DNA of 64,000 nucleotides from an uncultured bacterium (GTDB lineage Bacteria > Krumholzibacteriota > Krumholzibacteriia > JACNKJ01), in the NCBI GenBank assembly GCA_964344565.1, contig CAYFNT010000012.1, positions 30,648-94,647 of the forward strand. The letters are read 5' to 3'. The notes under the pieces are model-generated. The model worked only from the letters and a program-made list of their open reading frames with translations, was not told where the DNA came from and made no database searches. Positions 16,301 to 35,169 of this stretch are shown here, in pieces; positions within the stretch are counted from its first letter, which is position 1, and every line of letters starts with the position of its first letter. The position numbers and the translations under genes were made by a program.

Positions 16301-19300
16301 TTGGCCATGGCGGCGGTGGTCCACTCGAGCATCTTCTTGCCGCTGATGAAGCGGCGGTGCATGGCGCGGAGGGTGGCGTCGAGGGTCATCCACGACTGGT
16401 GGGGGAGCAGGGCCGTGTCCGAGAGGGTCCGAACGAAATCGTAGCCCAGCTCGCGGCGGGAGAGTTTCATCCACTGGCTCGGGGTCAGAAGCCAGGTGCT
16501 CAGTCGCGTGAGCACCGGGAAGAGCAGGACCAGCGCCGCCAGGATCGCCGTGGCGGCGGCGAGGGCCGCACCGGCGAACCATGACAGGGGCAGCAGGGTG
16601 AGCAGGGCGGGCAGGGCCATGCTGCGGCGTAGATTGTCGAAGACCTTCCAGCGGGACAGGGCGTCCAGGGGGTTGGCCGTCTTCTTGCCGTCGCCGCCGG
16701 GAACCCGGGGGGCCGACCAGTCTGCGATCTGCCAGTCGCCTCGGATCCAGCGGTGCTGGCGCATGGCGAAGGAACGGTAGTCGGCGGGGAAATCGTCGTA
16801 GAGCTCGATGTCGGTGGCCAGGCCAACCCGCACGTGGGCGCCTTCGATGAGGTCGTGGCTGAGGATGGTCTGCTCGGGGAAGCGATCGGTGAGCACCTGA
16901 TGGAAGGCGCGAAGATCGTAGATGCCCTTGCCGTGGTAGGAACCCTCGCCGGCGAGATCCTGATAGACGTCCGAGACAGCGCGGGTGTAGGGATCCGTGC
17001 CCGTGGGATCCGTATAGATGCGCGAGAAAAGGCTGGTCATGGCGCTGGGCAAGCCGGTGCTCACCCGCGGCTGGATGAGCGTGTAGCCGTCGATGACACG
17101 CGTTCCGTCGTCGCTGAGCCAGGGACGATTGAGGGGGTGGGCCAGGGTCTCCACCATGCGCCGCGCGGTGTCGCGGGGCAGTTCGGTGTCGGCGTCAAGG
17201 GTGATGACGAAGCGCACGTTGTCCAATAGGCTCGGATCGCCGGCCTGGATGAGCCCATCGCCGGCCCGGGGTCTTTCACCGCTGAGCAGACGGTTCAGCT
17301 CCTCGAGCTTGCCGCGCTTGCGTTCCCAGCCGATGTATCGACCCTCCGATTCGCACCATTCCCGATCCCGGTGGAAGAAGAAGAAACGGTTCTCGCCGTG
17401 GCGGCGAGCCAGTTCATCCACGGCCTTCTTCGCGTGGGCCAGGATCTCCGCATCCCGAGGCGTGGTTTCCTCGTCGGCGTCGGTGAAATCGCCGAAGAGA
17501 CCGTAGAGCAGGTTGTCGCCGGGATTGGCGAGGTATCGGATCTCGAGCTTGCGGAGTTCCTCGTCGATGACCTGCTCGCTGATGGACAGCATGGGCACGA
17601 CCACCAGGGTGCGGAACTCGTCGGGAATGCCCGTGCGCTTGAAGGACATCTTCGGTAGGGCCCTCGGCGTGAGGCCCCGGGAGATGGCGTAGTTGAGCAG
17701 CTGCAGGGAAAGCTGACTGGCCGGGAATGCCGCCAGGATCAGGATGGGCAGGAGCCAGCCGGCCCCGACGCCGGAGGCCAGACCGACCCAGGCCAGGGCG
17801 ACCAGGAGGGACAGGGTCATGAGGCCCAGGGAACCCAGGTAGATCGGCGAGGCCCTGTGGGTGATTCGCCTGCGGGCGCGACGGCGCCAGGAATCGCGGG
17901 TGAAGAGGCTGTCGAGCAGGGCGGGACGGCCCTTGCCCACGAGCCACCAGCCCACATGGCCGAGCCGCTCCTCGTTCTCCTCGCCCTGGGCCGCGGCGGC
18001 CAGCTCGGTGGCCTTGCGCGCCACTTCCTCCTCTCCGAGCTTCGAGGCGCGGGCGACCTCTTCCACCGCGTCGCGGTAGCTGTCGCGGGTGGAGAAGTCC
18101 ATCTTGGAGAAGTGTCCGCCGGGATCCTGCACCAGTACCTTCTCTACCATGCTCTGCTGCTCGAAGATCTCGCGCCAGTCCAGCAGGGTGAGCTGCCTCA
18201 GGCTGGTGATGGCGTTGCCGATGGAGGCCCGGTCGGCGGCTTGCTCGGACTGCTCCCTCTGCAGCATCTCGGCCAGGGGAATGGCCATCTTCTGTTCCAG
18301 CCAGGTGCGCACGGGCACCAGGGCCGCGTCCTCGTCGAAGAGGTGGCTGGTGATCTGCGAGGCGAAGTGGGGGCTGGGCTCGGGATGCTGCTCGGCCATC
18401 TCGGCCAGGATTCGCAGCAGCTGATTCGGATCGCGCCGGCTCGCGGCCAGCAGGCGGTGGGCCCAGAAGTCGGCGCTCTCGCGCTCGTGGAGGCGACGGT
18501 CCACCCGCTGGGTGAGGCGGCAGAGCCCGGTGAGCAGGGCGATGCGCAGCATCATGGGGAAGGCCCAGAGCTCGCCGATGGTCAGGGGCGAGACCGATTG
18601 ATAGGCCTCGAGGAAATCGCCGATGTTGTGACGATCCAGCCAGCCGTCGGTATGCTGGATCATCTCCTTGGCCATGTTGTAGATGCGCGGCAGGCCCCGG
18701 TGGGGGTCGCTATCCAGCACGGGAAGTTCCCGGTAGAAGCCCTTGGGCAGGTTCAGGCGCACGTCGTTGATCTGGCCCTGCACGATGTAGGCGTTGTCGA
18801 GGATCCACTCGGCCGAGGTGGAGATGCGCTGGTCGAGCTTGGAGACGTCCTCCAGGCCCCGGCGGACCTCCTGGATGACCCGCTCGCAGCGATCCAGACG
18901 CTTGAGCAGCGACTCTTCCTTGCCCCGGCTCGGACGCACCTTGTGGCGGGTGGCCAGCTCTCTGGAGTGTTGCCGGAACTGATTGCTTGTCAGGGGGGTT
19001 TGGCGCGTCTCTTCATCCGGAATCTTGTGCTTTCGGTCCGGATGGAAGGTGAAGATGGAGGGCTGGACCTCGCCGATTCGGCGCAGGATGGGCAGCTCGC
19101 CGGCCAGGGAGGAGAAGCGGGCCTGGAGCATCAACATGTTCTCGCCGGTGACCAGGTAGCGGGCGTAGGTGTTCAGGGGCGCGCGGGCCAGACCGAAGGG
19201 AGCGCCCAGGCCGCGCTGGATGCGGACCTGTCCCGATCGGGATTTCCTCAGAACCGCCACCTTCCGGTAGCCCCGTCGCCTCAACTGCTCCAGCGCCCGC

Positions 19301-19365
19301 GCGGCGTCCTCCTGCTCGCGGAAGAAGCCAAGCAGCACTCCCTGCTTGTTCCTGGATAAACTCAT
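10357..19365 (-). CDS. ndvB: Cyclic beta-1,2-glucan synthase (Cgs/NdvB/ChvB-type; GT84 glycosyltransferase plus C-terminal GH94 glucan phosphorylase-like domain), about 3003 aa
   Basis: One continuous ORF. The probable start is ATG at 19365 (MSLSRNKQGVLLGFF, SD AGGTGAG); the listed 3053-aa ORF starts 50 codons further upstream. GT84 region (FFFFHRDREWCESEGRYIGWERKRGKLEELN, ITLDADTELPRDTARRMV) and GH94 region (GDWNDGMNRVGIGGKGESVWMAWFL, YFESIDYG). Multiple predicted TM helices in the N-terminal third. The size and architecture match Brucella/Agrobacterium Cgs. Confidence 0.85.
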   Translation of the reverse strand: MSLSRNKQGVLLGFFREQEDAARALEQLRRRGYRKVAVLRKSRSGQVRIQRGLGAPFGLARAPLNTYARYLVTGENMLMLQARFSSLAGELPILRRIGEVQPSIFTFHPDRKHKIPDEETRQTPLTSNQFRQHSRELATRHKVRPSRGKEESLLKRLDRCERVIQEVRRGLEDVSKLDQRISTSAEWILDNAYIVQGQINDVRLNLPKGFYRELPVLDSDPHRGLPRIYNMAKEMIQHTDGWLDRHNIGDFLEAYQSVSPLTIGELWAFPMMLRIALLTGLCRLTQRVDRRLHERESADFWAHRLLAASRRDPNQLLRILAEMAEQHPEPSPHFASQITSHLFDEDAALVPVRTWLEQKMAIPLAEMLQREQSEQAADRASIGNAITSLRQLTLLDWREIFEQQSMVEKVLVQDPGGHFSKMDFSTRDSYRDAVEEVARASKLGEEEVARKATELAAAAQGEENEERLGHVGWWLVGKGRPALLDSLFTRDSWRRRARRRITHRASPIYLGSLGLMTLSLLVALAWVGLASGVGAGWLLPILILAAFPASQLSLQLLNYAISRGLTPRALPKMSFKRTGIPDEFRTLVVVPMLSISEQVIDEELRKLEIRYLANPGDNLLYGLFGDFTDADEETTPRDAEILAHAKKAVDELARRHGENRFFFFHRDREWCESEGRYIGWERKRGKLEELNRLLSGERPRAGDGLIQAGDPSLLDNVRFVITLDADTELPRDTARRMVETLAHPLNRPWLSDDGTRVIDGYTLIQPRVSTGLPSAMTSLFSRIYTDPTGTDPYTRAVSDVYQDLAGEGSYHGKGIYDLRAFHQVLTDRFPEQTILSHDLIEGAHVRVGLATDIELYDDFPADYRSFAMRQHRWIRGDWQIADWSAPRVPGGDGKKTANPLDALSRWKVFDNLRRSMALPALLTLLPLSWFAGAALAAATAILAALVLLFPVLTRLSTWLLTPSQWMKLSRRELGYDFVRTLSDTALLPHQSWMTLDATLRAMHRRFISGKKMLEWTTAAMAKAHSGGQSAGFLLRVAVGAALALLLLIGILLTDAPGLWPALPFLALWFAGPVLALRLNRPDRTNESLGKLSRQDHLYLRRIARRTWRYFDDFIGEDTHWLPPDNYQVSYDGGLAMRTSPTNIGLWMLSSLAAQDFGFIRPDDAVDRIERTFDSLDKLERYHGHLLNWYDLNDLHPLEPRYVSTVDSGNLLGSLWALGPGIREIYERPLLREASFSGPNDSLRLLMESIDPSRLAAEPLQVLDALDRLLSRPSGKLLSRLGQIREASRHAGELILGAGMGSRGEVAEASYWNGKLREDLESLSILADRYLAWMELLAEVPQELLPHLGEEGQADWEALLDHAPSMAELASTSVPALNRIFALATVDEIQDSSRRWIERLEASFRACHERAALRMQQAERLIERARELASGMNMRFLYDRERRLFSIGYKVGDETLDGSYYDLLASEARLTSFVAIARGDVPADHWLSLSRPYGMVNRKRVLLSWGGTMFEYLMPTLFQRVFEKSLLDKSCSDAVDQQIHYGNQQKVPWGISESAFSDLDAQNTYQYKAFGSPGLGLKRGLDDDLVVSPYSTLLAVPFKPKESIANLRKLEANDLYGHYGFFESIDYGRQRRRAGEHGVVVHAYMIHHQAMGFLALSNFLFDGILQDRFHADPRVEATEPLLYERIPVAPPLYKVPLRQWTATRMLPADVAPATRNFETPHTRTPQTLLLGNGNMNIMLTAAGGGYSRWNGVNLTRWRADGTRDHWGSFCFFRDEQSGEVWSNTFQPLGDEGGEFSVNFAADRARFRRLDHGIHCETEIIVAPEDDLEIRQITLSNRTASTRRLEITSFYELALAEHRADRQHQAYSKLFVETEFLPEAEALLAQRRPKDADGEAIWAGHRLVFEHRTEAGLQYETDRRSFLWRGRDASDPAALGAPLSGGKGRVLDSIFSLRKSIVLEPQARVRFNLLLAASETRDGVLAVLDRYGDEKAIARELELAWRHAQLQLRHLRIQPDEARRFQQLAAHVLYPSRQFRAPEDRLRQNRLGQRNLWAHGISGDLPIVAVSVGQVRDMSLVRQLLLAHNYWRKNGLVADLVILNEEGASYDKPLQEQLMRLVQANSMYTGVDTPGGVFLRRADQLSEDDLHLLLSASHVHLVAARGPLPQQFGLPVKWSAETAPRSFKTLPEEPSFKLPYQELVHENGLGGFTPDGREYVITLNEGEQTPAPWVNVMANPEFGAMVSESGGGFCWFGNSQQNRLNAWANDPVSDPPSDAIFIRDEESGRLWSPTPLPIREIEPYRIRHGAGYTRFEHNSHAIEQDLLTFVPMDDAGGLPLRVQRLRLRNNSGRRRKLSVTYYTEWTLGENREDTQLHVVTQWEEKAGILFARNRYHSDFGHRLAFAAMSPRAEHHTGDRVEFLGRNGRPADPAALKGEGLSGRTGAGLDPCAAMQLSLELDPGEDRELCILLGQGASREEVMALVARFADAQRRAESYEATTDWWDKLLGSVQVETPDDRANIMLNRWLPYQALSCRIWGRSALYQSGGAVGFRDQLQDSMALLHNSPQLVREQILRAAARQFREGDVQHWWHPQSGAGIRSRCSDDLLWLPYVTARYVEMMDDEAILHEQVPFLEAAPLTKEQHEIFVQPAETVESATLFEHCRLAIQKGLNLGERGLPLMGSGDWNDGMNRVGIGGKGESVWMAWFLGDVLQSFARICRRLGREDEAEGYLGRAQQLAANVEKSAWDGDWYLRAFFDDGTPLGSKWSEEARLDSLSQSWAAISGLGDPERTDRALDSAREELVRREDRLVLLFAPPFEKWDMDPGYIKSYPPGVRENGGQYTHAATWLAKAFALRGRGEEAVEILDLLNPISHAYDGESAHRYRVEPYVIAADVYRLEGHLGMGGWSWYTGAASWYFRVWLEDVLGLDLAGSRLRLSPSIPAEWKGFKLSYRFGRAIYEIEVEGSGRVESIELDGRSLQDDVLPLEDDGAKHRVRVKLGEVSKVRS

Positions 19366-19482
19366 CTCACCTGCCAGATTGCGTGGGAATTCGACGGAAA
19401 GCACTATCGGACGCGATTTTGCGCCATGTCCCCGAAATGAACAAGCTCCAAAACGCCGGGACTCGCCAGGGGGCACGAAAAA

Positions 19483-19503
19483 GGCCCCGGCATCGCCGGG
19501 GCC
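19483..19503 (-). terminator. Rho-independent terminator downstream of tricorn-like gene
   Basis: Perfect 9-bp stem GGCCCCGGC / GCCGGGGCC with a 3-nt loop. On the minus strand it is followed by TTTTTCG. It lies 25 nt after the stop at 19528. Confidence 0.6.
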
Positions 19504-19527
19504 TTTCGCAGCGGGCAAGAATCGGTG

Positions 19528-22500
19528 CTAGTTCTCGTTCTCGTAGGCCTCCCGGCTGCGGTCGGGGGCCGGTCCGAAATCGGGCTTTTCGGGGGGATGC
19601 TTCTTGTGGAGCTTCATGACCTCCTCGATGCCCCGTTCCAGCTGGGCGTCGATGCCGCGGGCCAGATCCTGGGGAAGGTTGTCCACCTCGATGTCGGGAT
19701 CCACGCCGTGGCCCTCCAGTCCCCAGCCGTCCTTGCTGTCCCACCACGCGAACTCCGGATGCGTCACCGCGCCGCCGTCCACGAAGGGCTTCACGCCGCG
19801 GATGCCGACCACGCCGCCCCAGGAGCGCTTGCCGATGACCGGCGCCAGTCCTTCGAGCTGCACGGCCGCCGGGAAGATGTCGCCGTCGGAGCCGGCGTTC
19901 TCATTGGTGAGAACCACGAAGGGTCCGTTGAGCACCCGGTAGGGGTAGGTGCTCATGGTGCCGTAGCGCATGCGGTCCCAGCTGATGATGCTGCGTTGGA
20001 AACGCGCGAGGATGAGCTGGGACACGAAGCCGCCGCCGTTCCAGCGGGTGTCGACGATCATCCCTTCCTTTTCCAACTGCGGGTAGAACCAGGTGTCGAA
20101 CTCGACCATTCCGCGTCCGCCCATGTCGGGGATGTGGATGTAACCGATCTTGCCGTCGGTCTTCTCGAGAACGTACTCGCGGTTCTTCCTCACCCAGTCG
20201 GCGTAGACCAGCTGGAAGTTGTTGTAGATGGGACGCACGACCACGTGGCGCGTGTCCTCCGAGCCGAGGCTGTCGACCACCGTGAGCATCACCTCGCGGC
20301 CCGCCAGATTCTCGAAGGCCGCCTCGAAGGGTCGGTCCTCCGGGAAGGACAGCAGGTTCACCTCGAGGATGTAGTCGCCCTCGTCGACGTCCACTCCGGG
20401 CTCGTCCAGGGGCGAGCGCACGCGATCGGGGTGGCCGCCGCGGTAGATGTGATCCACGCGGAAGGCATCGCCCTCCCGCGCGAACTCGGCGCCGAGCAGC
20501 CCCGTGCCGCGCCATTGCGCGCCGGGCTTGTTGTCCCCGCCCCAGACGTAGGTGTGGCCAGTGGACAGTTCACCGATCATCTCGGCGATGAGATCGCGCA
20601 GGTCGGTGCGTCGGGCCAGGCGGGGCAGCATGCTCGCGTACTGGTCGCGGACGGCTTCCCAATCGAGGCCGTGCATGTTCTCGTCCCAGTAGAAGTCGCG
20701 CAGTCCGCGCCAGGCTTCGTGGAAGATCTGCTTCCACTCCTCGCGGGGATCCAGATCGATGACCGCGCCGCTGAAGTCCACGGCCGCGTCGGAGAGGTCT
20801 CCGGGAGGAGCGGCGGTGCCGACCACGAAGATCTGTCCGCGGCCCTTGCTCACGGCCATCTTGCCGGCGCCGGGCTGCAGGTCGTAGCTGAAGACGCCCG
20901 GCATGAACATGGAGGGCTCGTCCTCGCCGATGCCGTAGCTCATCAGATTCACGCCGCCTCCCGGTCCGCTATCGGCCCAGCTCGTGCCGGCCAATCCAGT
21001 CATGGGCGCGGAGTGGTAGAAGATCTTTCCGGAAACGGCGCCCAGGCCCCAGTAGCCTCCGGCGGGGATGGGAAGCTCGACGAATCGATCCGCGATTCCA
21101 TCGAAGTCGATTTCCACGGGCTCGAGTTTCTCTTCCTCATCCTCTTCATCCTCGGCCTCGTCGTCCTCGCCTTCGGCCTCTTCACCTTCCTCGTCATCGC
21201 TGTCGGCATCCTCGCCATCGGCATCATCGCCGTCGGCGTCTTCGCCCTCGCCTTCCTCGGCATCACCTTCTTCGCCTTCGGCCTCGGAGTCCTCATCCTC
21301 GGTCTCGGCGTCTTCTTCCTCCTCATCTTCTTCCACGGGAGGGATGCCGGCCTGATCCAGGAAGGGATTCTCCACGTCGGGACGAAGGAAGAGCATGTAT
21401 GCCTTGGTGGCCTGGTCGATGATGGTCTCGAAGTCGCGGTTGCCGATCAACGGATCGATACTGCGATTGCTCAGGAAATACAGGTACTTGCCGTCGGGAT
21501 CCCAGGCGGGGGAGTAGTCGTCGGTCATGTCGCCTGTGACGATGTGATCCTCCTGCTCCTGGGTGTCGTAGATATGGATCGTGCCGTTGCCGATCATGTT
21601 GTTGGTGGTGTAGGCGAGCCAGCGTCCGTCGGGACTCCACTCGTATTCGTGGATCTCCCAGCCCTCGCTGTGGGCGATCTCGATGGGATCGGATTCTTCC
21701 GCCTCGAGGTCGATGAGGAAGAGGCCGTGGGTGATGTCGCCGTAGGCCAGCCAACGATCGTCCGGCGAGATGCGGGGCATGAAGTATCCGCCCCGTTCGC
21801 CCGCCGGCTTGATGGTCTTCAGATCGCCTCGGCCCCAGGCGTCGGCGTTGACGAGGGCTTCCTCGCCGCTCTCGTCGGTCACGTAGACCACGCGCTCACC
21901 GTCGTCCATGTAGTTGAAGCGACTCTCGCGAGCGCCGCTGCCTCGGGTGACCGGCAGGGTCACCCCGTCCTCCACCGGAATGGTGAACATCTCGCCGCGA
22001 CTCACGATCATCACGCGCTCGCCGTCGGGGGAGAGTCCGTACTCGGTGAGGTAGAGGCCAGAGTTGGGGTAGCGCTTGCGCGTGAAGCTGCGCTCGCTGG
22101 GCAGGTCGATCTCTAGCGTGGTCTCCTCATCCGTGCTCGGATTGTAGAGGTGGATGTCGCCGGCCAGCCCGAAGACGATGCGGCCAGAAGGACCCATAGC
22201 GGGGAAACGGGCGTCCCAGGTGTCGTGGTCGGTCAGACGCTTGCGGCGGCTGCCGTCGGCCTTCATGGACCAGAGGTTGGCCGTGCCACCCATGTCGCTC
22301 AGGAAGTAGATCTTGCCGCCGAACCACATGGGAAAGAGGTCGATGCCGTCGAAGTCCGTGACTTCCCGGTAGTCCTGCTTTCCGGGATCGCCCACCCAGA
22401 TCTCGGGGGCGGTGCCGCCCCGGTAGCGCTTCCAGGTGCCGCCGCCCCAGGTGCGGGTGAAGGCCCAATCGCCGCTGTCCGGATCGATGGCCAGGAAGTT

Positions 22501-22977
22501 GGCGCGGCCGATGGGCACCTGCATCGCGTCCCCGCCGCGGGCGGGAATCATGTAGATCTCGGGATCGAAGTGTGCGCTGTGACGCGAAGCGCGGAAAAGG
22601 ATCTTCTCGCCGTCGGGCGACCAGCCCACGCAGGTGTCGCCTCCCGGATGCCAGGTCAGGCGTCGAGGCTCTCCGCCTTCCACGGGAATCACGTAGAGAT
22701 CCATGTTGCCGTCGTACTGGGCGGAAAAGGCGATGGTCTTGCCGTCCGGAGAGATGTGGGGGCTGAACTCCCGTCCCTCGTGGGCGGTGATGCGATGGAT
22801 GGATCCCACCCTGTCTCCGTCGATGCGACCGGTCCAGAGATCACCTTCGGCGGTGAAGACCAAGAGGTCTCCGTGGATGTCCGGATTGCCCAGGTAGCCC
22901 GGGCGCGCCCAGGCCGTCAGCGCCGTGGCGAGGATCAGAAGCAAGGCCAGATGGATCCGCATTGAGCCGCTACTCAT
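19528..22977 (-). CDS. Tricorn protease homolog (TolB-like beta-propellers plus PDZ plus S41 C-terminal-processing peptidase domains) with an about 70-aa D/E-rich insertion
   Basis: Signal peptide [20 protein letters not shown]-terminal propeller motifs ([27 protein letters not shown]), PDZ, and S41 core ([16 protein letters not shown]..., [18 protein letters not shown]). Acidic tract [37 protein letters not shown]... at about 21060-21330. The antisense 863-aa ORF is rejected. Confidence 0.8.
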
Positions 22978-23182
22978 CGTTCCTCCTTGGAGAGGCTATG
23001 GGGGCGAACACAAGATGGGGGGACGCGAAGGAGCGCCGTTCCCGGCGGGAACGGCGGAATCGCGAAATGGGATGATCCGGAACGACCGGATGCTGCGCTC
23101 CCCCGTAAGAGCGATACGATAACGCTTCCCGTGAAAAGAAGTTACCGGAATGCTGGGGTTATTCTCAAGAAGTCCGCCAATG

Positions 23183-23191
23183 TGCTATAAT
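23183..23191 (+). promoter_or_regulatory. Extended -10 promoter element TGcTATAAT upstream of the CotH/LTD/CTD gene
   Basis: TGCTATAAT at 23183-23191 in an AT-richer divergent intergenic region, about 70 nt upstream of ATG 23262. The same 9-mer recurs upstream of the GH57-CTD gene (38541) and as GGCTATAAT upstream of the GATase-CTD gene (6631). Confidence 0.4.
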
Positions 23192-23261
23192 AATGATCTC
23201 GAAATCGAGGCGGGGTCTTCGATACCGGGCATTCAATACAATCGCAACCAAAGGTCCACCA

Positions 23262-26200
23262 ATGAGTTCGGCGCGTATTCTCAAGTCGATTCTTGGGGCG
23301 CTGGCGCTTCTCCTTCTGCTGGTGCCGCAGACGGAAGCCCAGTCCGCCCCCCAGGACTATTTCATGAGCATCGATCCGGACAGCCTCGATTACATCTACG
23401 AGAACTATTGGTTCGACCACTACGTGCCCTGCACCATCACCATCGATGGACAGCTCTGGCCCGACTGCCGGGTGCGAATCCGCGGAGATTCCTCCCGCGA
23501 GCTGCCGAAGAAGTCCCTCAAGATCAAGACCGATGGCGCTCTCTTCCCCAACGGCAACGACGTGATGAATTTCAACGCCGACTGGTATGACCCTTCCTAC
23601 ATGCGGGTCGTGATGGCCTCCCGATTCTTCGAGTCGGCGGGGGTGCCTTGCTTCTCGGCGGAGCACGGGCGGCTCCACCTCAACGGGAGTTTCTGGGGTC
23701 TCTACGTAGTCATCCAGAACATGGACGAGCTCTTCCTGCTGGAGAACGGGCTCGATCCCACCGGAAACCTCTACAAGGCGACCAAGGACGGCGCCTCCCT
23801 CTTCTACGGCGAGCCCGTGGAGCTGCGATGGGAGAAGAAGTCCAACGATCTCGGACCCTGGGACGATCTCTACTCGCTCATCGACAGCCTGCACTTCGTG
23901 CCCGACGATCGCTTCGGCAGCTGGGCGGTGGACAATCTCGAGATCGACGAGATCGCCAGCATCCTGGCCTCCAACGCACTGCTGGCCAACGGGAGCACCT
24001 ACTACCACAACTACTACATGTACCACGACATCAACGGCACGGGTAAGTGGTCCATGTTCCCCTGGGATCTCGACAAGATCTTCGCCCAGTACGGCGAAAG
24101 CTATCCCTATCATCGCTCGAGCACTTCCTGGCTCCACGACAATCCCCTGGTCGAGAGGTTCTTCGTCACGGATTCCACCTTCGACCTCTTCCACGCGCGC
24201 CTGGACGAACTCGTGGACACGAGCTTCAATCCGGATTTCTTCTACCCCCTCATGGACAGCCTTCAGCTGGTGCTGGAGGAGTCGGTGTTGAACGACGACA
24301 CCGACGACATCCAGAACATCGAGGACTGGTACTGGGTCCTCAACAACGAACGGGTCGTGGGCATCGAGGGGCGCATCGTGGACACGCAGGACCAGCTGGA
24401 CCATTTCCCGCGGCCCATGCGCGTGGAGCCCACGCCCCATTCCTACCAGGATTCGATTCCCTTCAACTGGAATTCCGCCACGGATCCCGACGGGGATCCG
24501 GTGACCTACACCCTCAAGTACTCCCTGAACTACACCTTCCCCGAGGGTTCGACCTACGTGCACGAGGACATCGCCGACACCACCTACACCCTTCGCATGG
24601 CGCCGCCGGAGGGCAACTACTACTGGCGGCTCTACTCCTGCGACGGCGACTCCCTGCACAATGTCGAGGGATGGGACTCCCACGGAACCTTCCGGGTTGA
24701 CCAGGGCACCGTGCTGCCGCCGGTGATTTCCAGCAACATGACCCTCACCAGCTACGGCTCGCCCTACTTCGTCAACGAGGATCTGGTGGTGGAGTCGGGC
24801 GTGACCCTGACCATCTACCCCGCCGCGGAAATCCGGCTCGCCGAAGACGCGAAAATCACCGTTCGCGGCGTCATGGATGCCGAGGGGACCGCGATCAATC
24901 CCATCATGTTCCGCCGCGACATCTTCCAGGACGAGCGTTGGGGCGCGCTCTGCTTCGACTGGGCCGACGGACCGTCCCTCCTGAAGCACGTTAACATCGA
25001 GGGCACCTCGGTGGGGGGCGACTACGTCTGGGAAAAGTCGGCCGTCTCCAGCTATCGCACCGATCTGGTTCTGGACCACGTGACCTTCGACAACTGCCGG
25101 CAGAGCGTCTACTCGCAGGAGGCCGATCTCGTCCTTCGCGATTGCCTCTTCCTGGACACCAATCAGCTTGAGATCCTCAACGTGAAGTACGGAACCGCGG
25201 CCATCGAACGATGCGAGTTCCACAACGCCGGGGTCGACGGCGACGCCCTCGACTTCGACACCGTCGACTACGGGCTCATCAGGGACTGCCGCTTCACCGG
25301 CCTTCCCGGCAGCGACGATCTCATCGATCTGGGAGACGAGTGCGTGGAGGTCGTGCTGGAAAACAACGTGATCGTCGGCGCGCCGGACAAGGGTGTGTCG
25401 GTGGGCGAGAAGTCCCACGCGCTGCTCTTCCGCAACTTCATCGCCGATTGCGCCATCGGCGTGGCCGTGAAGGACTCGTCCGTCTGCGATCTCGATCGGA
25501 ACACCTTCCGCGAGAATCTCACGGCCCTGTCGGTCTATGAGAAGATCTTCGGATCGGGCGGAGGATTCGCCTACGCGGACAACTGCATCTTCTCGGCCAG
25601 CATCAGCGACGACGTGGCCGTGGACGCCCTCTCCACCGGAGAGGTGAACTACTCCCTATCCGATACCGAAGCCCTGGAGGGACTGGAAAATCTCTTCGAG
25701 GATCCCCTCTTCCGTGATCCGGCCGGTGGAGATTTCCGACTGCAGCCGAACTCCCCCTGCGTGGATTCGGGCGATCCGGCCAGTCCCCTCGATCCCGACC
25801 AGACCCGGGCCGACATGGGAGCCTACTTCTACGATCAGGCGCCCCTGGCCCTCGTGATCAACGAGATCAACTACCACTCGGCCCCGGACTACGACTGTCA
25901 GGACTGGGTGGAGCTCCACAATCCCCTGGACATTCCCGTGGAGGTCGGCGGCCTCAAGTTCAAGGACGCCGGACACAGCTTCGTCATTCCCGAGGGTACC
26001 CTCATCGGCGCGCACAACTACCTGGTGATCGCCGAGAACCGAAGCGCCTTCGAAAACTTCCACGGCAGCCTTCCCAACCTTGTGGGCGATCTCGGCTTCG
26101 GTTTCAGCGGAGCGGGGGAAATCCTTCTGCTCACGGGCGCCGACGACACGGTCTACGATTGGGTCATGTACGACAGCCAGCCGCCCTGGCCCCTGGAACC

Positions 26201-26627
26201 GGACGGGCAGGGGCCCACCCTGGAGCTCATCGACTACGCCAGCGACAACACGCTCCCGGAGAGCTGGGGCGCGTCCATGGGGCACGGCACGCCTGGAAGA
26301 ATCAACAGCCTCACAGATCCCACGGCGGTGGAGTCGGACCCGGTCCCAGGGGTGACGAGTCTCGCGGAGGTCTTCCCCAATCCCTTCAATCCCCATTGCA
26401 CGGTTCGCTTCAGTCTGGCCGACGATGCGAAGGTTCGCCTGAGCGTCCATGATCTGCGGGGCAGACGGGTGGTCACCCTTGCGGACGAGTCCCTGCGAGC
26501 CGGTCGGCACGAGCGGAGCTGGGACGGTCTCGACGAGCGGGGGCGGCCCAGCGCCAGCGGCATCTACTTCCTTCGTCTCCAGGCGGAAGAGCTCCGTTTG
26601 TCCAAGAAGCTGGTGTTGCTGCGATAA
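23262..26627 (+). CDS. Giant secreted multidomain protein: CotH kinase-like domain plus parallel beta-helix region plus lamin-tail domain (LTD) plus T9SS type-A CTD
   Basis: Start at MSSARILKSILGALALLLLLVPQTEA (signal peptide). ORF-track start 23193 would overlap the -10 element. CotH motifs (WYDPSYMRVVMASRFFESAGVPC, GLYVVIQNMDELFLLENGLDPTGNLYKA, YYHNYYMYHD, KWSMFPWDLDKIF). Beta-helix repeats (about 24700-25700). LTD (LVINEINYHSAP..DWVELHNP...GEILLLTGADDTVYDWVMY). C-terminus FPNPFNPHCTVRFSL...SGIYFLRLQAEELRLSKKLVLLR. Confidence 0.75.
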   Translation: MSSARILKSILGALALLLLLVPQTEAQSAPQDYFMSIDPDSLDYIYENYWFDHYVPCTITIDGQLWPDCRVRIRGDSSRELPKKSLKIKTDGALFPNGNDVMNFNADWYDPSYMRVVMASRFFESAGVPCFSAEHGRLHLNGSFWGLYVVIQNMDELFLLENGLDPTGNLYKATKDGASLFYGEPVELRWEKKSNDLGPWDDLYSLIDSLHFVPDDRFGSWAVDNLEIDEIASILASNALLANGSTYYHNYYMYHDINGTGKWSMFPWDLDKIFAQYGESYPYHRSSTSWLHDNPLVERFFVTDSTFDLFHARLDELVDTSFNPDFFYPLMDSLQLVLEESVLNDDTDDIQNIEDWYWVLNNERVVGIEGRIVDTQDQLDHFPRPMRVEPTPHSYQDSIPFNWNSATDPDGDPVTYTLKYSLNYTFPEGSTYVHEDIADTTYTLRMAPPEGNYYWRLYSCDGDSLHNVEGWDSHGTFRVDQGTVLPPVISSNMTLTSYGSPYFVNEDLVVESGVTLTIYPAAEIRLAEDAKITVRGVMDAEGTAINPIMFRRDIFQDERWGALCFDWADGPSLLKHVNIEGTSVGGDYVWEKSAVSSYRTDLVLDHVTFDNCRQSVYSQEADLVLRDCLFLDTNQLEILNVKYGTAAIERCEFHNAGVDGDALDFDTVDYGLIRDCRFTGLPGSDDLIDLGDECVEVVLENNVIVGAPDKGVSVGEKSHALLFRNFIADCAIGVAVKDSSVCDLDRNTFRENLTALSVYEKIFGSGGGFAYADNCIFSASISDDVAVDALSTGEVNYSLSDTEALEGLENLFEDPLFRDPAGGDFRLQPNSPCVDSGDPASPLDPDQTRADMGAYFYDQAPLALVINEINYHSAPDYDCQDWVELHNPLDIPVEVGGLKFKDAGHSFVIPEGTLIGAHNYLVIAENRSAFENFHGSLPNLVGDLGFGFSGAGEILLLTGADDTVYDWVMYDSQPPWPLEPDGQGPTLELIDYASDNTLPESWGASMGHGTPGRINSLTDPTAVESDPVPGVTSLAEVFPNPFNPHCTVRFSLADDAKVRLSVHDLRGRRVVTLADESLRAGRHERSWDGLDERGRPSASGIYFLRLQAEELRLSKKLVLLR

Positions 26628-29094: not shown

Positions 29095-31590
29095 TCAGCC
29101 AATGGGCACCTCCTTCCCTTCACCCTGGCGACGCTCGAGGATCTTGGCGCGCTGTTTCTCCTTGCGGGCCGAAACCTTGCCCATTTCCTCGTCCAGGATG
29201 CGCTGGGTCTCCTCGATCTCCTCGAGGGTGACGAACTTGCGCATGCGGTCCAGGTCCTTCATCACCTTGGCGAACTTGCTTCCCTGGGCCGCGCTGATCC
29301 ACTCGAGCTGCAGGCGTTCGGGCCTGATGCCGAGCTTTTCGAGGCGGTTCCAGAGCTTCTCCACGCGTTTCTGCGTCCACTGCACCGCGTTGATGTAGTG
29401 GCAATCGGAGAAGTGGCAGCCGCTGACCAGCACCATGGACGATCCCTGGCGGAAGGCTTCGAGCACGAAGTCCTCGTCCACGCGACCCGAGCACATGGTG
29501 CGGATGAGCCGCGCATGGGCCGGATACTGGGAGCGATTGGTTCCGGCAAGGTCCGCGCCCGGATAGGAGCACCAGTTGCAGGCGAAGGTGACCACCTTCT
29601 CGTGGGCCTTCTCCGCGCAGATGGCTTCGATCTGAGCGTAGATCTGGTCATCGTCGTAGTGACGCATCTTGATGACGTCGGTGGGACACTCCGAGGCGCA
29701 GGTTCCGCAGCCGGCGCAGGCTGCTTCGATGACCTCGGGGAAGATCCCGCCCTTCTTGTCGGGCTTGGTGATGGCCCCGTAGGGGCAGACCGTGGCGCAG
29801 ATTCCGCACTGGGTGCAGTAGGTGTGATCGATCACCGAGGTGATGGCCTCGATGGTCACCTTCCCCGCATTCAGCAGAATGCTGGCCCGGCTCGAGGCCG
29901 CGCTGGCCTGCGTCACCGAGTCCTTCACGTCCTTGGGGAACTCGTTGCAGCCCGCGAAATAGACGCCGCGGCTAGGAGCGTCCACCGGCTTGAGCTTCGG
30001 GTGGCTCTCCATGTAGAAGCCGTCCGAGGTGTTCGAGAGATTCAGCAGCTTCTTGATGATGCCGCCGTCCCGCCGCGGGATGAGCCCCGTGGCCAGCACG
30101 ACCATGTCCAGTTCGTGCTTCTCGAGCTTGCCGGTGGTGGTGTTCTCCACGGTGATCTTGAGGTTGTTCGTTTCCGGATCCTCCTCGATGCCGCCGGGAA
30201 GACCGCGAACGTAACGCACGCCCTCGTCCTTGCTGCGCCGGTAGAGATCCTCGAATCCCTTGCCGAAGGCCCGAATGTCCATGTAGAACACCGAGCTCTC
30301 GCTGTCGGGATAGTGATCCGCCAGAAGCAGGGTGGACTTGACCGTGTTCATGCAGCAAATGTTGCTGCAGTAGGGATTTCCCTTGGGGGACAGGTCCCGC
30401 GAGCCCACGCACTGGATGAAGCCGATACGCTTGGGACGCTCCTTGTCCGAGGGTCGCATGAAGTGACCTTCGGTGGGGCCGCCCGCGCAGATCAGCCGTT
30501 CGAATTCCATCGAGGTGATGACGTTCGGGTAGCGCGTGTATCCGTATTCGTCGTACTCGGTGGGGTCGTAGACGTCCGCGCCGGTGGCCACGATGATCGC
30601 GCCCACCTCGACGTTGATGAACTCGTCCTCCATGTCGTAGTCGATGCAGCCCTTCTCGCAGACTTCCTTGCACTTGCCGCAGGCGATGGGATTGGTGCCC
30701 AGGCAGTTGTCCATGTCGATGAGGAAGGACGAGGGCACCGACTGCGGGAAGGGGATGTAGATAGCCTTCCGGCTGGAGAGACCCTCCTGATACTCGTCGG
30801 GAACGGCCACGGGACAGACCTCGACGCAATCGCCGCAGGCGGTGCACTCGGTCTCGTCCACGTACTTGGCCTTCTTGCGCACCGTCACGTGGAAATTGCC
30901 CACGAATCCGGTGACGTTTTCAACTTCGCTGCTGGTGAGGAGCTTGATCTTGGGATGCCGACCGACATCCATCATTTTGGGCCCCAGAATTCATATAGAG
31001 CAATCCATTGTGGGATAGGTCTTGTCCAACGCGGCCATGATCCCACCGATGCTCGCCTCCTTTTCCACCAGATAGACGTAGTGTCCCGCATCGGCCAGGT
31101 CGAGCGCGGACTGTATTCCCGCGACTCCCCCTCCAACGACCAGTGCGGCTTTCGTCACCGGAACTTCGGTCTCGATCTGAGGCTCCAGGAAGCGGGCCCG
31201 GGCCACGGATGAGGCGACCAGGTCCTTGGCCTTGGCGGTGGCCTCGCCTTTCTGCCCCGAGTGCACCCAACTCACGTGTTCGCGGATGTTCGCCATCTCC
31301 AGGAGGTAGGGGTTCAGTCCCGCCTCCTTCAGGCAATTCCGGAACGTGGGCTCGTGGATCTTCGGGGTGCAGGAGGCCACGACGACGCGATTGAGCTTGT
31401 GCTCGTGCACCGCCTTGATGATCTCCATCTGCCCGGGATCCGCGCAGGTGTACTTGTTTCCCACCACCGCCACCACATCGGGCAGGGTTGCCGCGAATTT
31501 CGCGACCTCCGCCGTGTCGACCGTGCCGGCGATGTTCTTTCCGCAATCGCAGACGAACACGCCGATGCGAAGGTCCTGCGGTTTTACCAT
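29095..31590 (-). CDS. hdrA: Heterodisulfide reductase subunit A (HdrA) fused to a C-terminal MvhD/FlpD domain; candidate selenoprotein with in-frame UGA (30993-30991) decoded as Sec
   Basis: ORFs 30991..31590 and 29095..30975 are collinear. They are separated only by TGA plus 15 nt in the same frame: ...[12 protein letters not shown][UGA][18 protein letters not shown]. This aligns with the canonical HdrA ...FPT.DCSMCILAPKMV..GRHPNIKL, with the UGA exactly at the second Cys of the redox CxxC. The N-terminal 4Fe-4S domain ([12 protein letters not shown]) and FAD site ([20 protein letters not shown]) are present. The C-terminal 140 aa are an MvhD domain ([15 protein letters not shown]...[10 protein letters not shown]). 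Confidence 0.75.
30953..30970 (-). ncRNA. Candidate bacterial SECIS-like hairpin about 23 nt downstream of the hdrA UGA
   Basis: mRNA GGAUG-UCGGUCGG-CAUCC: a 5-bp stem with an 8-nt loop containing GGU, beginning 23 nt 3' of the UGA. The position is compatible with a SelB-binding SECIS, but it is weakly defined. Confidence 0.25.
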
Positions 31591-32735
31591 GAACCATTAC
31601 CTCCATCGATGGACTCGGCCACCACCGTGGCGAAGTCGCGGATTTGGAGACTGCTCAATCGATCATCCTTTTCGCTGGCCTGGGCGCAGCGCAAATGAAT
31701 CTGGCATTTGGGACAGGCCGTGACGAGGGTCTCGGCCCCCGCGTCGGCCGCCTCGCGGAGACGCTCGGTCTGGATGCGCTTGGACACCGCGTTGCAGTGC
31801 ATCCAGCCTGAGGTGCCGCAGCAGACGCTGTCCTTTCCGTGATGCTCCATCTCGTGGAAACTCTCGCCGAAGATCTCGCCGAGGGCCGCCCGGGGCGCTT
31901 CGTATTCGCCCAGGTGCCGGCTGAGACGACAGGGATCCTGGAATGTCACCTCGCCCTTCAGGCCGCCGAATTCCACCCCACCATTCTCGCCCTTCCGCGC
32001 GAGGTATTCGGAGAGGTGAAGCGCCTCGTAGGGCACCTCGCCGGCGAGTTTCGGGTAGATCTCCCGCAGCATGAAGACGCATTCGGGACAGGACGAGACC
32101 ACCGTCTTCGCGCCGGCGGCCGCGATCTTCTCCACGTTCTTACTGGCGAGCCGGGCCGCGCTCCTCTCGTCGCCGCTCCAGTACAGGTCATGGCCGCAGC
32201 AGAGCTCGTCGGGCAGCAGCACGGGCTCTTCGCCCAGGGCATTGAGCACGCGGAGGGTGTCCTTGCCGATGCGCTGGGTGTCGGTGCCCAGATGCGTGTA
32301 GTAGCTGTCGTAATAGGGGAGGCAGCCGGTGAAGTAGAGCAGCTCGCCCTCGCCGGCCGTCTTCGCCTCCTCGGGCACCCATCCCAGGCGCTTCTGCTCG
32401 CGGCCGTTCTGGCTCATGATGCGCATCATGTGCTGGAAGACCGCGCCGTGGCTGCAGGCAGGGTCCGCGCCGTCGGCGCGCAATACCTCGCGTCCCTTGC
32501 GGGTGAACTGGGAATAGTCCACTTCTGAGGGACAGACCAGGCTGCAGAGCATGCAGGTGAGGCAGAGGTTGAACTTGGCCGGGGCCTGTCCTTCCGGGGC
32601 ATGCACCGCATGGGTCACCACCATGCGCGGCGAGAACTCCTCGTCGTATCGGGAGACGGGGCAGACGCCCGTGCACTTGCCGCAGTCCTGACAGAGCGTG
32701 GCATGAGTCTCGCGGAGGGCTTCCCTGAGGATCAT
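31584..32735 (-). CDS. HdrD-like Fe-S oxidoreductase (HdrC-type 2x[4Fe-4S] plus two HdrB-type CCG domains)
   Basis: The real start is ATG 32735 ([21 protein letters not shown]); the 511-aa ORF-track version carries a spurious N-terminal extension. Motifs [12 protein letters not shown] and [12 protein letters not shown] (ferredoxin), then LCCGHDLYW and VCCGTSGW (CCG domains). The stop overlaps the hdrA start (ATGGTAA). Confidence 0.75.
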
Positions 32736-33172
32736 CACTTCACCTCCGTGAGCTGGGGGACGGCTCCGATGGGGCCGCGAGGTCCGCTGGCTTCGAGCTG
32801 ATCGCGGAACTCCTGGACCGTTTCGAGGATCCGATCCGCCTTTCCCGGAGGGAAGAAGCGCACCCTGAAACGACTGGATTCCACACCGAGCATGTCCAGC
32901 ATGGGATCCACCCGACCGATGGTGTTCTCGAGCATCGCCGTGCCCGTGCCGTAGTGGCAGTCGCCCTCCTCGCAGGCCGCGATGAAGACGCCGTCGGCGC
33001 CCGACTCGAAAGCCTGCAGCACGAAGGAGGGATGGATGCGCCCCGTGCAAAGACTGCGGAGCACCGCGCTGCCCTCGGGCAGTTCGCGCTCCTCCTCCAG
33101 ACCCAAGGGGAAGCACCACTTGCAGGAGAAGATCATGAGGCGAGGTTTCCAGTTGCCTTCGATGGTTTTCAT
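32735..33172 (-). CDS. mvhD: MvhD/FlpD-like (methyl-viologen-reducing hydrogenase delta subunit family) small Fe-S protein
   Basis: The real start is ATG 33172 (MKTIEGNWKPRLMIFSCKWCFPLG..., SD GGAGGTGA). It shows the MvhD signature with conserved Cys (CKWC...CTGRI...ACEEGDCHY). ATGA overlap with the downstream gene. Confidence 0.7.
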   Translation of the reverse strand: MKTIEGNWKPRLMIFSCKWCFPLGLEEERELPEGSAVLRSLCTGRIHPSFVLQAFESGADGVFIAACEEGDCHYGTGTAMLENTIGRVDPMLDMLGVESSRFRVRFFPPGKADRILETVQEFRDQLEASGPRGPIGAVPQLTEVK

Positions 33173-35169
33173 GAGCTCACCTCCACGCTCTCCCTGAGAA
33201 GGGCGTCGATCTCCCGGCGGACGAAGTCGTTCCGGAAGTATCCCGGAACCATGGCCTGGGTGGGACAGAGGGGCACGCAGTTTCCGCATCCCTTGCAGCG
33301 GTCCGCGAGCACCCTCGCCACCTGGACGTCCTCGCCCCGGTGCTCCATGATGATGGCCTCGTAGTCGCAGCCCTTTAGGCAGTCCTCGCAGCCGCGGCAG
33401 AGCTTCTCGTTCACCTGGCAGACCAGGCTCGAGAGCTTCATGCCCAGGCGTTCGACCACCTTCTTGCCTTCGCGCCGGCTCTTCCATTCCAGAGCCACCG
33501 GTTCGGGAAGGAGGGGGAGCGGGAACTGCTCGTCGTTGTCGGGAATGCGCAGGAAGAGCGGCACGCTGTGCTCGCTCTCATCGAAGGAGAGCAGGCCGAT
33601 GCGGTAGCGGCAATCGCCCGCGCAGGTCTGGCACTCGTCGCAGGGCCCGCAGCGGAGGCAGCGTCCGGCTTCGGCCACCGCCATGTCCTGGGCGAAACCG
33701 AGTTCGACCTCGTCGAAACCGCCTCGCTTCTCCACCGGCAGTTCGGGTTGCACGGCCCGCCTGCGCTCGGAGGGCAGGGGAGGCTGCACGCCCACCTCGA
33801 TGGGACGGGAGGATTCGTCGCCGAAGGCGCGCCCCTCCAGCCAGGCGTGGGCGGCCTTGGCGGCGCGGTGCCCCTGGGCGATGGCGCCGATGACCGTGTC
33901 GGGTCCCAGCACCAGGTCGCCCGCGGCGAAGACGCCTTCCACGTCGGTCATGAGGCTCGCGGAATCGGCCTCGAGGGTGCCCCAGCCGCTTTTCTTGAAG
34001 GGCAGGTCCTCGGGCAGCAGGTCGAGGTTGGCTTCCTGGCTGATGGCCGGAACGATGAGGTCGGCCTCCACCGTGAAGGTGTCGTCCTTGATGGGCACGG
34101 GACGGCGGCGTCCGCTCTCGTCGGGCTCGCCCAGTTCCATGCGCTGGCAGAGAAGCCCCGTGACCTTGCCCTTCTTGCCGACCACTTCCAGCGGTCCGGC
34201 CAGGAAGGTGAAGGTGACGCCCTCGTTCTCGGCCTCGACCACCTCCTCGGGCACGGCGGGCATCTCATCCTTGGTGCGCCGGTAGACCACCTCGACCTTC
34301 TCGAAGCCGAGGCGGCGGGCGGTGCGGGCCGCGTCCATGGCGCTCATGCCGCCGCCCACGACGATCAGGCTCTTCCCCTTTGGAATGGCCTTGCCGCGGC
34401 TGGCCATACGCAGGAAGGTGAGGCAGTCGAAGACGCCCGAGTTCTCCCGCTCGCCGGGCACGTTCATCTTCTTGCCCAGGGCGGCGCCCAGGGCGAGGAT
34501 GACGGCGGCGTAGCCTTCGTCGCGGATTTCTTCCAGGGTGATGTCCTTGCCCACGCGCAGGCCGGTCTTGATCTCCACGCCCAGGGATTCGATGTGGGCG
34601 ACTTCGCCCGCCACGATCTCGCGGGGCAGGCGGAAGGAGGGGATGCACTGAACGAGCATGCCGCCGGCGGTCTCGTCGGACTCGTAGACCGTGACGCCGT
34701 AGCCCAGGTGAGCCAGGTCGAAGGCCGCGGCCAGTCCGGCCGGACCCGCGCCGATGACGGCCACCTTCTCCGGTCTGCTACCGGCCACGCGCGCCGGCGC
34801 CGGACCCGGATTGTCCAGCTCCCAGTCGGCCACGAAGCGCTTGAGCAGCCGGATGGCCAGGGGGTCGTCCAGGTCGCTGCGTCGGCAGTTCAGTTCGCAG
34901 GGATGGGTGCAGACGCGTCCGCAGATGCCGGGCAGGGGACAGTCCTTGCGCACGAGTTCCACCGCCTCGCGGAACTTGCCGTCGGCGATGAGGCCCACGT
35001 AGCCCTTCACGTTCACGCCGGCCGGACAGGCCGCGTGGCAGGGGGAGGCGTCGATGCGCTGGAGCAGGCGGGGACCGTAGCGTCCTCCCAGATCCATTTG
35101 GATACCGCCCGTTTCCAGGGCCTGCCAGAAACTCTCCGGGAATCCCGATTTCCAGAGGGGCTTGACCAA
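33169..35169 (-). CDS. GltD/NfnB/SudA-like NAD(P)H:acceptor oxidoreductase (FAD/NAD binding, N-terminal 2x[4Fe-4S]) with C-terminal ferredoxin-like extension
   Basis: TTG start 35169 with SD GGAGGA 6 nt upstream. N-terminal CHAACPAGVN...CPLPGICGRVCTHPCELNC. Two Rossmann motifs (VAVIGAGPAGLAAA, LIVVGGGMSAMDAA). C-terminal CLRCGPCDECQTCAGDC and CRGCEDC...CKGCGNCVPLCP. Confidence 0.75.
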   Translation of the reverse strand: MVKPLWKSGFPESFWQALETGGIQMDLGGRYGPRLLQRIDASPCHAACPAGVNVKGYVGLIADGKFREAVELVRKDCPLPGICGRVCTHPCELNCRRSDLDDPLAIRLLKRFVADWELDNPGPAPARVAGSRPEKVAVIGAGPAGLAAAFDLAHLGYGVTVYESDETAGGMLVQCIPSFRLPREIVAGEVAHIESLGVEIKTGLRVGKDITLEEIRDEGYAAVILALGAALGKKMNVPGERENSGVFDCLTFLRMASRGKAIPKGKSLIVVGGGMSAMDAARTARRLGFEKVEVVYRRTKDEMPAVPEEVVEAENEGVTFTFLAGPLEVVGKKGKVTGLLCQRMELGEPDESGRRRPVPIKDDTFTVEADLIVPAISQEANLDLLPEDLPFKKSGWGTLEADSASLMTDVEGVFAAGDLVLGPDTVIGAIAQGHRAAKAAHAWLEGRAFGDESSRPIEVGVQPPLPSERRRAVQPELPVEKRGGFDEVELGFAQDMAVAEAGRCLRCGPCDECQTCAGDCRYRIGLLSFDESEHSVPLFLRIPDNDEQFPLPLLPEPVALEWKSRREGKKVVERLGMKLSSLVCQVNEKLCRGCEDCLKGCDYEAIIMEHRGEDVQVARVLADRCKGCGNCVPLCPTQAMVPGYFRNDFVRREIDALLRESVEVSS

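Follow-up and report, generated by a model that had tools for sequence, protein, structure and literature searches.

CotH of Bacillus cereus has an atypical kinase fold, and B. subtilis CotH acts as a conventional ATP-dependent Ser/Thr kinase on CotB and CotG. These proteins retain the equivalents of D166, N171, and D184 of PKA and hold adenine between Tyr142 and Trp245 (PMC12189002), and the B. subtilis enzyme is inactive when either D228Q or D251A is introduced (PMC7821199). In non-sporulating Firmicutes, genes for secreted CotH homologues, a polyphosphate polymerase, and DUF4956 adjoin pel exopolysaccharide operons (PMC7112168), and deletion of one CotH-like gene in Streptococcus intermedius, SIR_1594, lowers Pel levels and aggregation (PMC12345266). 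In Clostridium thermocellum, cellulosomal CotH proteins include CseP/Cthe_0044 and Cthe_0239, the latter with the order LTD-LTD-Fn3-CotH, where LTD is the lamin-tail domain and Fn3 the fibronectin type III domain (PMC6083626). Here, we analyse a CotH protein encoded at 23262-26627 (+ strand, stop codon 26625-26627 included) in a 64-kb stretch of DNA from an uncultured bacterium of the Krumholzibacteriota, to which we refer as the window. Its CotH domain has an invariant serine at the position of the catalytic aspartate and is joined to a beta-helix, an LTD, and a C-terminal sorting domain (CTD) of the type IX secretion system (T9SS).

The sequence-only reading of this stretch had described an 1121-residue protein combining these four domains, and this description stands. 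Read from ATG 23262, the frame is 1121 residues long and stops at 26627, and the identical product (P0001) was called independently on at least three metagenome contigs. When we ran the domain annotation, the CotH, beta-helix, LTD, and CTD assignments all had profile scores above the cut-offs, the last through TIGR04183, with Por_Secre_tail below. The gene thus encodes a real secreted protein in which all four predicted domains hold. An AlphaFold2 model built on 59 full-length homologues has a mean predicted local distance difference test (pLDDT) score of 90.7. Within the protein, conservation is highest in the CotH domain.

The CotH domain occupies residues 30-381 (23349-24404, +), C-terminal helical extension included. 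It matches the Pfam CotH profile (PF08757) over residues 71-354 (E=4.9e-46, 158.2 bits for a cut-off of 23.8) and shares its atypical kinase fold with B. cereus CotH. When HMMER aligns it to the B. cereus structure 5jd9, 'nfDgfvHNy...pWDyD' pairs with 'ngSTYYHNY...PWDLD' at maximal posterior probability. The equivalent of the catalytic loop is therefore S245-T-Y-Y-H-N250-Y251 (23994-24014, +), in which Ser245 pairs with the catalytic Asp (B. subtilis CotH D228, PKA D166) and N250 is the counterpart of the metal-binding Asn (PKA N171). The register of the alignment agrees with published work on two counts: the 23-residue gap between the two Asp positions of 5jd9 is that of B. subtilis D228-D251, and the Trp index, offset by one residue, fits the published Trp245. 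Further on, the motif W268-D269-L-D271-K272 (24063-24077, +) holds the adenine-stacking Trp (W268), the counterpart of the metal-binding Asp (D269; PKA D184, B. subtilis D251), and a position enriched in Lys/Arg in the clade that shares the serine (hereafter the Ser-type clade). The equivalent of Tyr142 (B. cereus numbering) aligns to K172 with Y171 adjacent, where a one-residue register shift is possible.

The motif N-x-S-T-Y-Y-H-N-Y is carried by 119 of 120 homologues. An exhaustive phmmer search, with the CotH domain as query and 1.84 billion representatives clustered at 50% identity as target, yielded 6093 hits at E<=1e-3, of which only 164 were at E<=1e-30. Among the 150 best representatives, 137 have S-T-Y-Y-H-N-Y with Ser at the position of residue 245, down to ~31% identity. 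Over these 137 clusters, S, H, N, and Y251 are invariant, and T, Y, and Y are each present in at least 94%. Canonical Asp-type sequences start abruptly in the ranking at ~E=1e-37. The catalytic position is Asp in all 16 canonical CotH comparators. Nine Asp-type sequences taken in addition to those of the ranking, eight paralogues from genomes of the Fibrobacteres-Chlorobi-Bacteroidetes (FCB) group and B. cereus CotH itself, likewise have Asp. The Ser-type clade is widespread yet sharply delimited, with ~137 clusters (50% identity) out of ~6,100 detectable CotH-like clusters.

The residues specific to the Ser-type clade are S245, T246, Y247, Y248, and K/R272 around the catalytic loop, and also Asp76, in the motif R74-G75-D76 (Asp76 at 23487-23489, +). 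Position 76 is D or E in 126 of the 137 Ser-type representatives and acidic in none of the 16 Asp-type comparators. Both types have R74, G75, K83, K84, S85, D110, N141, K172, N250, W268, D269, and D271, a set that spans the nucleotide and metal site; the metal-ligand equivalents N250 and D269 (plus D271) and W268 are invariant and common to canonical CotH. We consider a decaying pseudo-domain disfavoured because no part of the protein is more conserved than this domain. The pattern of substitutions suggests instead an active site that was rewired yet kept under selection, its acidic group possibly moved to position 76. As far as the literature that we searched shows, the Ser-for-Asp signature and the swap at position 76 are undescribed. 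The earlier proposal that the protein is possibly ATP-dependent, with CotH catalytic residues whose conservation deserved a check, survives in part: the nucleotide- and metal-binding residues N250, D269, D271, and W268 are kept, but a conventional kinase reaction is unlikely because the catalytic Asp is replaced by the invariant Ser245.

The right-handed parallel beta-helix (residues ~501-860; 24762-25841, +) matches the Pfam Beta_helix profile (E=2.6e-10, 40.6 bits for a cut-off of 25.9) and ends in a conserved C-terminal cap, SPCxDxGDP...DPDxTRxDMGA. Its conservation is only moderate (27 of 360 residues at >=90%), and its resemblance is to polyuronate epimerases and lyases. An acidic cluster lies on consecutive rungs (D661, D664, D685, D686, and D689; 25242-25328, +), in the position usually taken by the active cleft of beta-helix enzymes, and D709/K710 and K737 follow on the next rungs. 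Among the 59 homologues, the cluster is conserved at D661 in 54, at E/D664 in 51, at D685 in 48, at D686 in 55, and at D689 in 52, and the rungs that follow keep D709 in 52, K737 in 51, and K710 in 39. D661/D685/D689 are spaced (+24/+28) exactly as are D209/D233/D237, the Ca2+ ligands of Pel9A, an enzyme that uses K273 as its catalytic base (PMC10992409). We regard the region as a Ca2+-site-like, putative acidic-glycan-binding cleft, which may or may not be catalytic. Elsewhere in the window, the ORFs (open reading frames) 2987-4888(+) and 4918-6615(+) also match Beta_helix, as does an overlapping antisense ORF, 2114-4174(-), which is probably a repeat-driven artefact.

We tentatively favour, at a little short of an even chance, the reading that this is an exported, glycan-directed multidomain protein, in which the beta-helix engages an acidic polysaccharide and the CotH domain binds nucleotide and metal without the canonical Asp-dependent kinase reaction. 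Export by Sec and the T9SS would place the protein on the cell surface or release it, and its target would be an extracellular acidic polysaccharide, be it the matrix of the cell itself or a polymer from outside. Glycan binding, and possibly epimerisation or cleavage, would fall to the beta-helix, a role as spacers or binding modules to the lamin-tail Ig and Fn3-like domains, and export and anchoring to the CTD. The domains with their folds, the signals for export, and the substitutions with their conservation are what the data show, while the binding of nucleotide, the target glycan, and catalysis of any kind are inferred. With its Asn/Asp ligands and stacking Trp intact, the CotH module would still bind a nucleotide-metal complex. 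Its catalytic loop would have been rewired, by the change from Asp to an invariant Ser, the gain of an acidic residue at 76, and the enrichment of Lys/Arg at 272, so that it would not be a conventional Ser/Thr protein kinase. The direction towards glycans is suggested by the Pel9A-like Asp spacing, the carbohydrate modules on neighbouring paralogues, and the CotH homologues linked to Pel. Judging from its residues, the CotH domain is most likely still an enzyme, with an altered acceptor or chemistry on a glycan or matrix component, and not a dead domain. We regard as possible, though doubtful, the further idea that the Ser-type clade is a new enzymatic class in the kinase-like superfamily: secreted, glycan-tethered, and with a chemistry other than the phosphorylation of protein hydroxyls, the acidic residue at 76 compensating for the lost Asp. 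Its target would then be extracellular polysaccharide in bacteria of the FCB group, and the candidate chemistries would be nucleotidylation, a transfer whose acceptor is anionic or a glycan, or a reaction with a donor other than ATP, for example polyphosphate. Atypical kinase folds with altered catalytic residues have repeatedly proved to catalyse unexpected reactions, as in SelO and SidJ. Modification of the biofilm matrix, one of the roles raised by the sequence-only reading, is plausible by analogy, given the likeness of the beta-helix to polyuronate enzymes and the ties of streptococcal CotH to Pel (PMC7112168, PMC12345266).

Several observations weigh against this glycan-directed, nucleotide-binding protein. 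No polysaccharide genes are conserved around the Ser-type gene across lineages. ATP is scarce outside the cell, and a nucleotide-dependent reaction there is hard to explain. The acidic cluster of the beta-helix is kept in only 80-93% of members, and neither of the candidate bases, K710 (39 of 59) and K737 (51 of 59), can be placed confidently at the position of Pel9A K273. The diagnostic motifs of two enzyme families are also missing: DPHD, expected of an AlgG-type mannuronan C5-epimerase, is absent, and so are the NTD and RIK of GH28 polygalacturonases. In the latter comparison, only G-S-D-D (683-686) is QDD-like, the sole GHG of the protein is at 1007, outside the beta-helix, and the profile match to the GH28 structure 1k5c spans two rungs only. 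We found no sequence-level match of the beta-helix to Pel9A (1ru4), and by motif its likeness to PL9 is confined to the spacing of the Asp cluster.

Of 17 loci with a Ser-type gene in other genomes, 7 (L006, L007, L009, L012, L014, L017, and L008) have an Asp-type CotH paralogue at a distance of no more than ~4 kb, mostly directly upstream and on the same strand. These paralogues have the architecture CotH / ~250 aa / LTD / CTD (~870 aa) or Malectin / CotH / LTD / CTD, and the CotH paralogues adjoining Ser-type genes carry malectin or CHB_HEX_C carbohydrate modules. Asp- and Ser-type genes are in tandem at 5301-7913 / 7980-11324 in L006, 2936-5572 / 7080-10313 in L009, 3460-6630 / 6675-9965 in L012, and 4135-6750 / 8548-10728 in L017, and in L007 (4889-17938) a single Malectin-CotH(Asp) gene precedes a run of three Ser-type genes. 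Such pairs would be expected if the Ser-type CotH were a dead but nucleotide-binding partner that allosterically activates, or scaffolds, a secreted Asp-type CotH kinase, as Fam20A does for Fam20C, with the beta-helix tethering the pair to glycan; the loss of the catalytic Asp alongside retention of the nucleotide and metal residues fits as well. We nevertheless think this arrangement unlikely. Paralogue adjacency is explicable by tandem duplication, the 64-kb window has no second CotH gene, and the Ser-type gene also stands alone in L004, L015, L026, and L030. Moreover, the conservation of S, T, Y, Y, H, N, and Y in the catalytic loop, each at >=94% over the 137 clusters, is stricter than a scaffold would lead one to expect, and the three tandem Ser-type genes of L007 look like specificity diversification.

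The loss of the catalytic Asp and the moderate conservation of the beta-helix (27 of 360 residues at >=90%) would also suit a non-enzymatic surface adhesin or structural matrix protein, in which the beta-helix, the Ig-like domains, and the CotH fold are only binding surfaces, like the GRP78-binding CotH invasins of Mucorales; fungal CotH proteins do serve as ligands (PMC9973265). A pure binding surface, however, leaves the invariant metal-ligand and adenine-stacking residues unexplained, and the acidic cluster sits where beta-helix enzymes usually have their active cleft, so we rate this role as quite improbable. At the other extreme, the protein could be a conventional ATP-dependent Ser/Thr kinase of surface or matrix proteins, comparable to B. 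subtilis CotH acting on CotB and CotG. Its strong membership of the CotH family, its fold, and the retention of N250, D269, W268, and the K83/K84/S85 motif agree with this, and some kinases with a substituted catalytic Asp, such as ErbB3, retain weak activity. We nonetheless hold a conventional kinase to be very unlikely: the equivalent position is Ser in every member of the clade whereas D228Q abolishes the activity of the B. subtilis enzyme (PMC7821199), no substrate genes with Ser/Lys/Arg repeats like those of cotB and cotG are nearby, and the supply of ATP beyond the outer membrane is doubtful.

The start of the gene was placed at ATG 23262 because a classical Sec signal peptide (MSSARILKSILGALALLLLLVPQTEA/QS) directly follows it, because gene callers and orthologues use the same start, and because the next candidate, ATG 23193, is only 2 nt past the -10 box. 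The latter opens a longer + frame in the six-frame ORF list (23193 to 26627) and was rejected as a start. We also set aside an antisense ORF of 758 aa, 23142-25418(-), as a high-GC artefact, the strong domain matches being on the sense strand. The signal peptide covers residues 1-26 (23262-23339, +), with predicted cleavage after TEA; read by eye, it has a basic n-region, a Leu-rich h-region, and the TEA/QS junction, and the AlphaFold2 model shows a helix at residues 3-19 and a low-confidence segment at 21-26. Between the CotH domain and the beta-helix is an all-beta Fn3/Ig-like sandwich linker with high pLDDT (residues ~395-500; 24444-24761, +). Precomputed PF00041 fn3 hits exist for some homologues in this region, the query itself being below threshold. 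The Ig-like lamin-tail domain (residues ~861-1016; 25842-26309, +) matches Pfam LTD (PF00932) over residues 860-970 (E=1.1e-10, 42.3 bits for a cut-off of 34.3), forms a beta-sandwich with strands over residues 865-1004 in the model, and has 23 of 125 residues conserved at >=90%. Among bacterial LTDs, that of the nuclease ExeM is partly dispensable (PMC6085458).

The C-terminal sorting domain, of the T9SS type A / FlgD_ig-like kind (residues ~1033-1121; 26358-26624, +), matches NCBIfam TIGR04183 over residues 1037-1118 of 1121 (29.6 for a cut-off of 23) and Pfam FlgD_ig over residues 1047-1109 (29.6 for a cut-off of 27), and scores 23.4 with Por_Secre_tail (PF18962), just below the cut-off of 27. 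A hidden Markov model of this CTD, run over the window, also matches ORF 6706-7917 (E=9e-31) and the GH57+CBM53 protein 38574-41660 (E=5e-20), a secreted-type protein to whose C-terminus the CTD is 40% identical (BLASTP). It recurs on unrelated ORFs of the window, as a modular sorting tag should. With the signal peptide and the same CTD on two other ORFs, the earlier proposal of secretion or surface display is well supported. That export depends on the T9SS is something we infer, since none of the T9SS machinery genes (PorV/SprA/PorU/GldKLMN) was found among the window ORFs scanned. The literature that we searched has no paper linking CotH with T9SS. ORF 6706-7917(+) itself encodes a 403-aa class-II glutamine amidotransferase-like protein (GATase_4, Ntn-type) with the secretion CTD, which is unusual for an exported protein.

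The sequence-only reading had implied that this combination of domains is rare, which our searches contradict. A search of 5.8 billion proteins gave more than 60 full-length homologues, at 30-74% identity and with the same CotH / beta-helix / LTD / CTD order, across many lineages of the FCB group. Among the named sources are Krumholzibacteria, Calditrichaeota, Marinimicrobia, Kapabacteria, Bacteroidota, and Aegiribacteria; KSB1, Hatepunaea, Saprospiraceae, Flavobacteriales, and others, all represented by metagenome-assembled genomes, came to light when GTDB species genomes were scanned. The nearest named relatives are Krumholzibacteria at 50% identity, and one metagenome-assembled genome has a match with 83% identity over residues 23-386. 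All 80 genome loci returned come from metagenome-assembled genomes, none from a cultured host. Relatives of ~730 aa lack the beta-helix and have the same CotH subtype, LTD, and CTD. The annotations of homologues, where present, are 'CotH kinase family protein', 'parallel beta-helix repeat protein', or 'T9SS type A sorting domain-containing protein'. The architecture is thus not unusual, and the protein is an ordinary member of a family that is already in databases but uncharacterised.

Upstream of the gene is a promoter-like site (23162-23191, +) made of a -35-like TTCTCA (23162-23167), an 18-nt spacer, and the extended -10 TGCTATAAT (23183-23191); in a consensus scan, the site scores 10/12, with TG. 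This -10 had been pointed out before, and it is present in the sequence and kept as TG(C/G)TATAAT (TGnTATAAT) in the intergenic sequence of three orthologous contigs, one of which has diverged strongly and is much changed around the box; the count for orthologous intergenic regions is 4 of 4. The box is probably a genuine extended -10. Two copies of the pattern TGNTATAAT are present in the window for 0.14 expected. The octamer GCTATAAT occurs three times in the 64 kb for 0.22 expected, a number reached in 0 of 100 shuffles. Its copies, all on the + strand, are at 6631-6638, 23184-23191, and 38542-38549, each upstream of a CTD-bearing ORF (6706-7917, 23262-26627, and 38574-41660, respectively), and may mark a shared promoter class for exported CTD proteins. 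The same intergenic region, between the CotH gene and the tricorn-type protease gene, has a block of ~75 nt (~23078-23155; …ATCCGGAACGACCGGA…CCCCCGTAAGAGCGATACGATAACGC…AAAAGAAGTTACCGGA) that is near-identical in orthologous contigs with 73-74% identity and partly kept in one with 67%. No Rfam match at E<=1 was found in the 284-bp intergenic region and 5' leader, the block included, and no intrinsic terminator-like site between 22700 and 27000.

The divergent arrangement with a tricorn-like protease, also noted earlier, holds up: the product of 19528-22977(-) matches Tricorn_C1, PDZ_Tricorn, Peptidase_S41, and PD40. The order GH94 glucan-synthase-like / tricorn / CotH / GNAT / MATE is found only in close orthologues (67-74% identity). 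Because more distant genomes lose this order, we do not infer functional coupling of the CotH gene to the tricorn, GNAT, or MATE genes. The GH94 gene, ORF 10357-19518(-), whose synteny with the tricorn and CotH genes extends to close relatives, encodes a cyclic beta-1,2-glucan synthase-like protein of 3053 aa (Glycoamylase, GH94 supersandwich, and GH94 catalytic domains). In one Bacteroidota-type locus (L008), the Ser-type gene, 5052-7909(-), is preceded by genes for ALGX (alginate O-acetylation-like), a GDSL lipase/acylhydrolase, and a carbamoyltransferase, a single case. Farther along the window, 38574-62804 is a dense alpha-glucan utilisation region with the GH57+CBM53+CTD protein, a GH57 4-alpha-glucanotransferase, AMPK1_CBM/CBM48 proteins, a GDE_C debranching enzyme, a 965-aa alpha-amylase with CBM48/X25/CBM53, a sugar ABC transporter, and a glycogen phosphorylase-like gene. 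An Hdr/Mvh-like electron-transfer cluster at 29095-37736(-), with FlpD/MvhD with 4Fe-4S, an HdrB-like CCG-domain protein, and an NfnB/GltD-like flavoprotein, adjoins subunits of a 2-oxoacid:ferredoxin oxidoreductase, which suggests an anaerobe.

The bacteria that export the Ser-type clade are dominant in sediments and other anoxic settings. If active, the domain would bring a new extracellular chemistry on matrix or dietary polysaccharides and would bear on the role of secreted CotH domains in places with little ATP. An inactive domain would make it a bacterial parallel to the pseudokinase-kinase arrangement of Fam20A and Fam20C. Either way, to call these proteins 'CotH kinase family protein', as databases do, is probably to claim more than is known, and the family is a reasonable biochemical target.

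Compared with the CotH of B. subtilis and B. cereus (PDB 5JD9/5JDA), the protein has the same R74, G75, K83, K84, S85, N141, H249, N250, W268, D269, and D271, but B. subtilis D228 is Ser245 here, the loop reads T-Y-Y instead of G-F-V, and Asp76 and Lys272 are gained. Other differences are its secretion and its fusion to a beta-helix, an LTD, and a T9SS CTD, as well as the absence of a spore context and of nearby cotB/cotG-like Ser/Lys/Arg-repeat substrate genes. The secretory-pathway kinases Fam20A and Fam20C, distant relatives of CotH, are likewise secreted kinase folds with a disabled and an intact paralogue, and the frequent adjacency of Ser- and Asp-type genes recalls this pair. The defect of Fam20A is in metal binding, whereas here it lies in the catalytic base, and the Ser-type gene of the window stands alone. 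The beta-helix is only 9-16% identical in sequence to AlgG (4NK8), Pel9A (1RU4), and PL6 alginate lyases; it has the Asp-cluster spacing of Pel9A, although the cluster is absent in ~10-20% of the family. The Pel-associated CotH of streptococci and clostridia, such as SIR_1594, have polyphosphate polymerase, DUF4956, and pel genes that find no counterpart near our gene, yet they too are secreted CotH proteins with Fn3 in non-sporulating bacteria. The CotH proteins of C. thermocellum are dockerin-displayed, Gram-positive, and devoid of a beta-helix and a T9SS CTD, but they share with the protein described here an extracellular CotH with LTD and Fn3 in a carbohydrate-processing setting, and Cthe_0239 bears out the earlier statement that combinations of CotH and LTD are known (PMC6083626).

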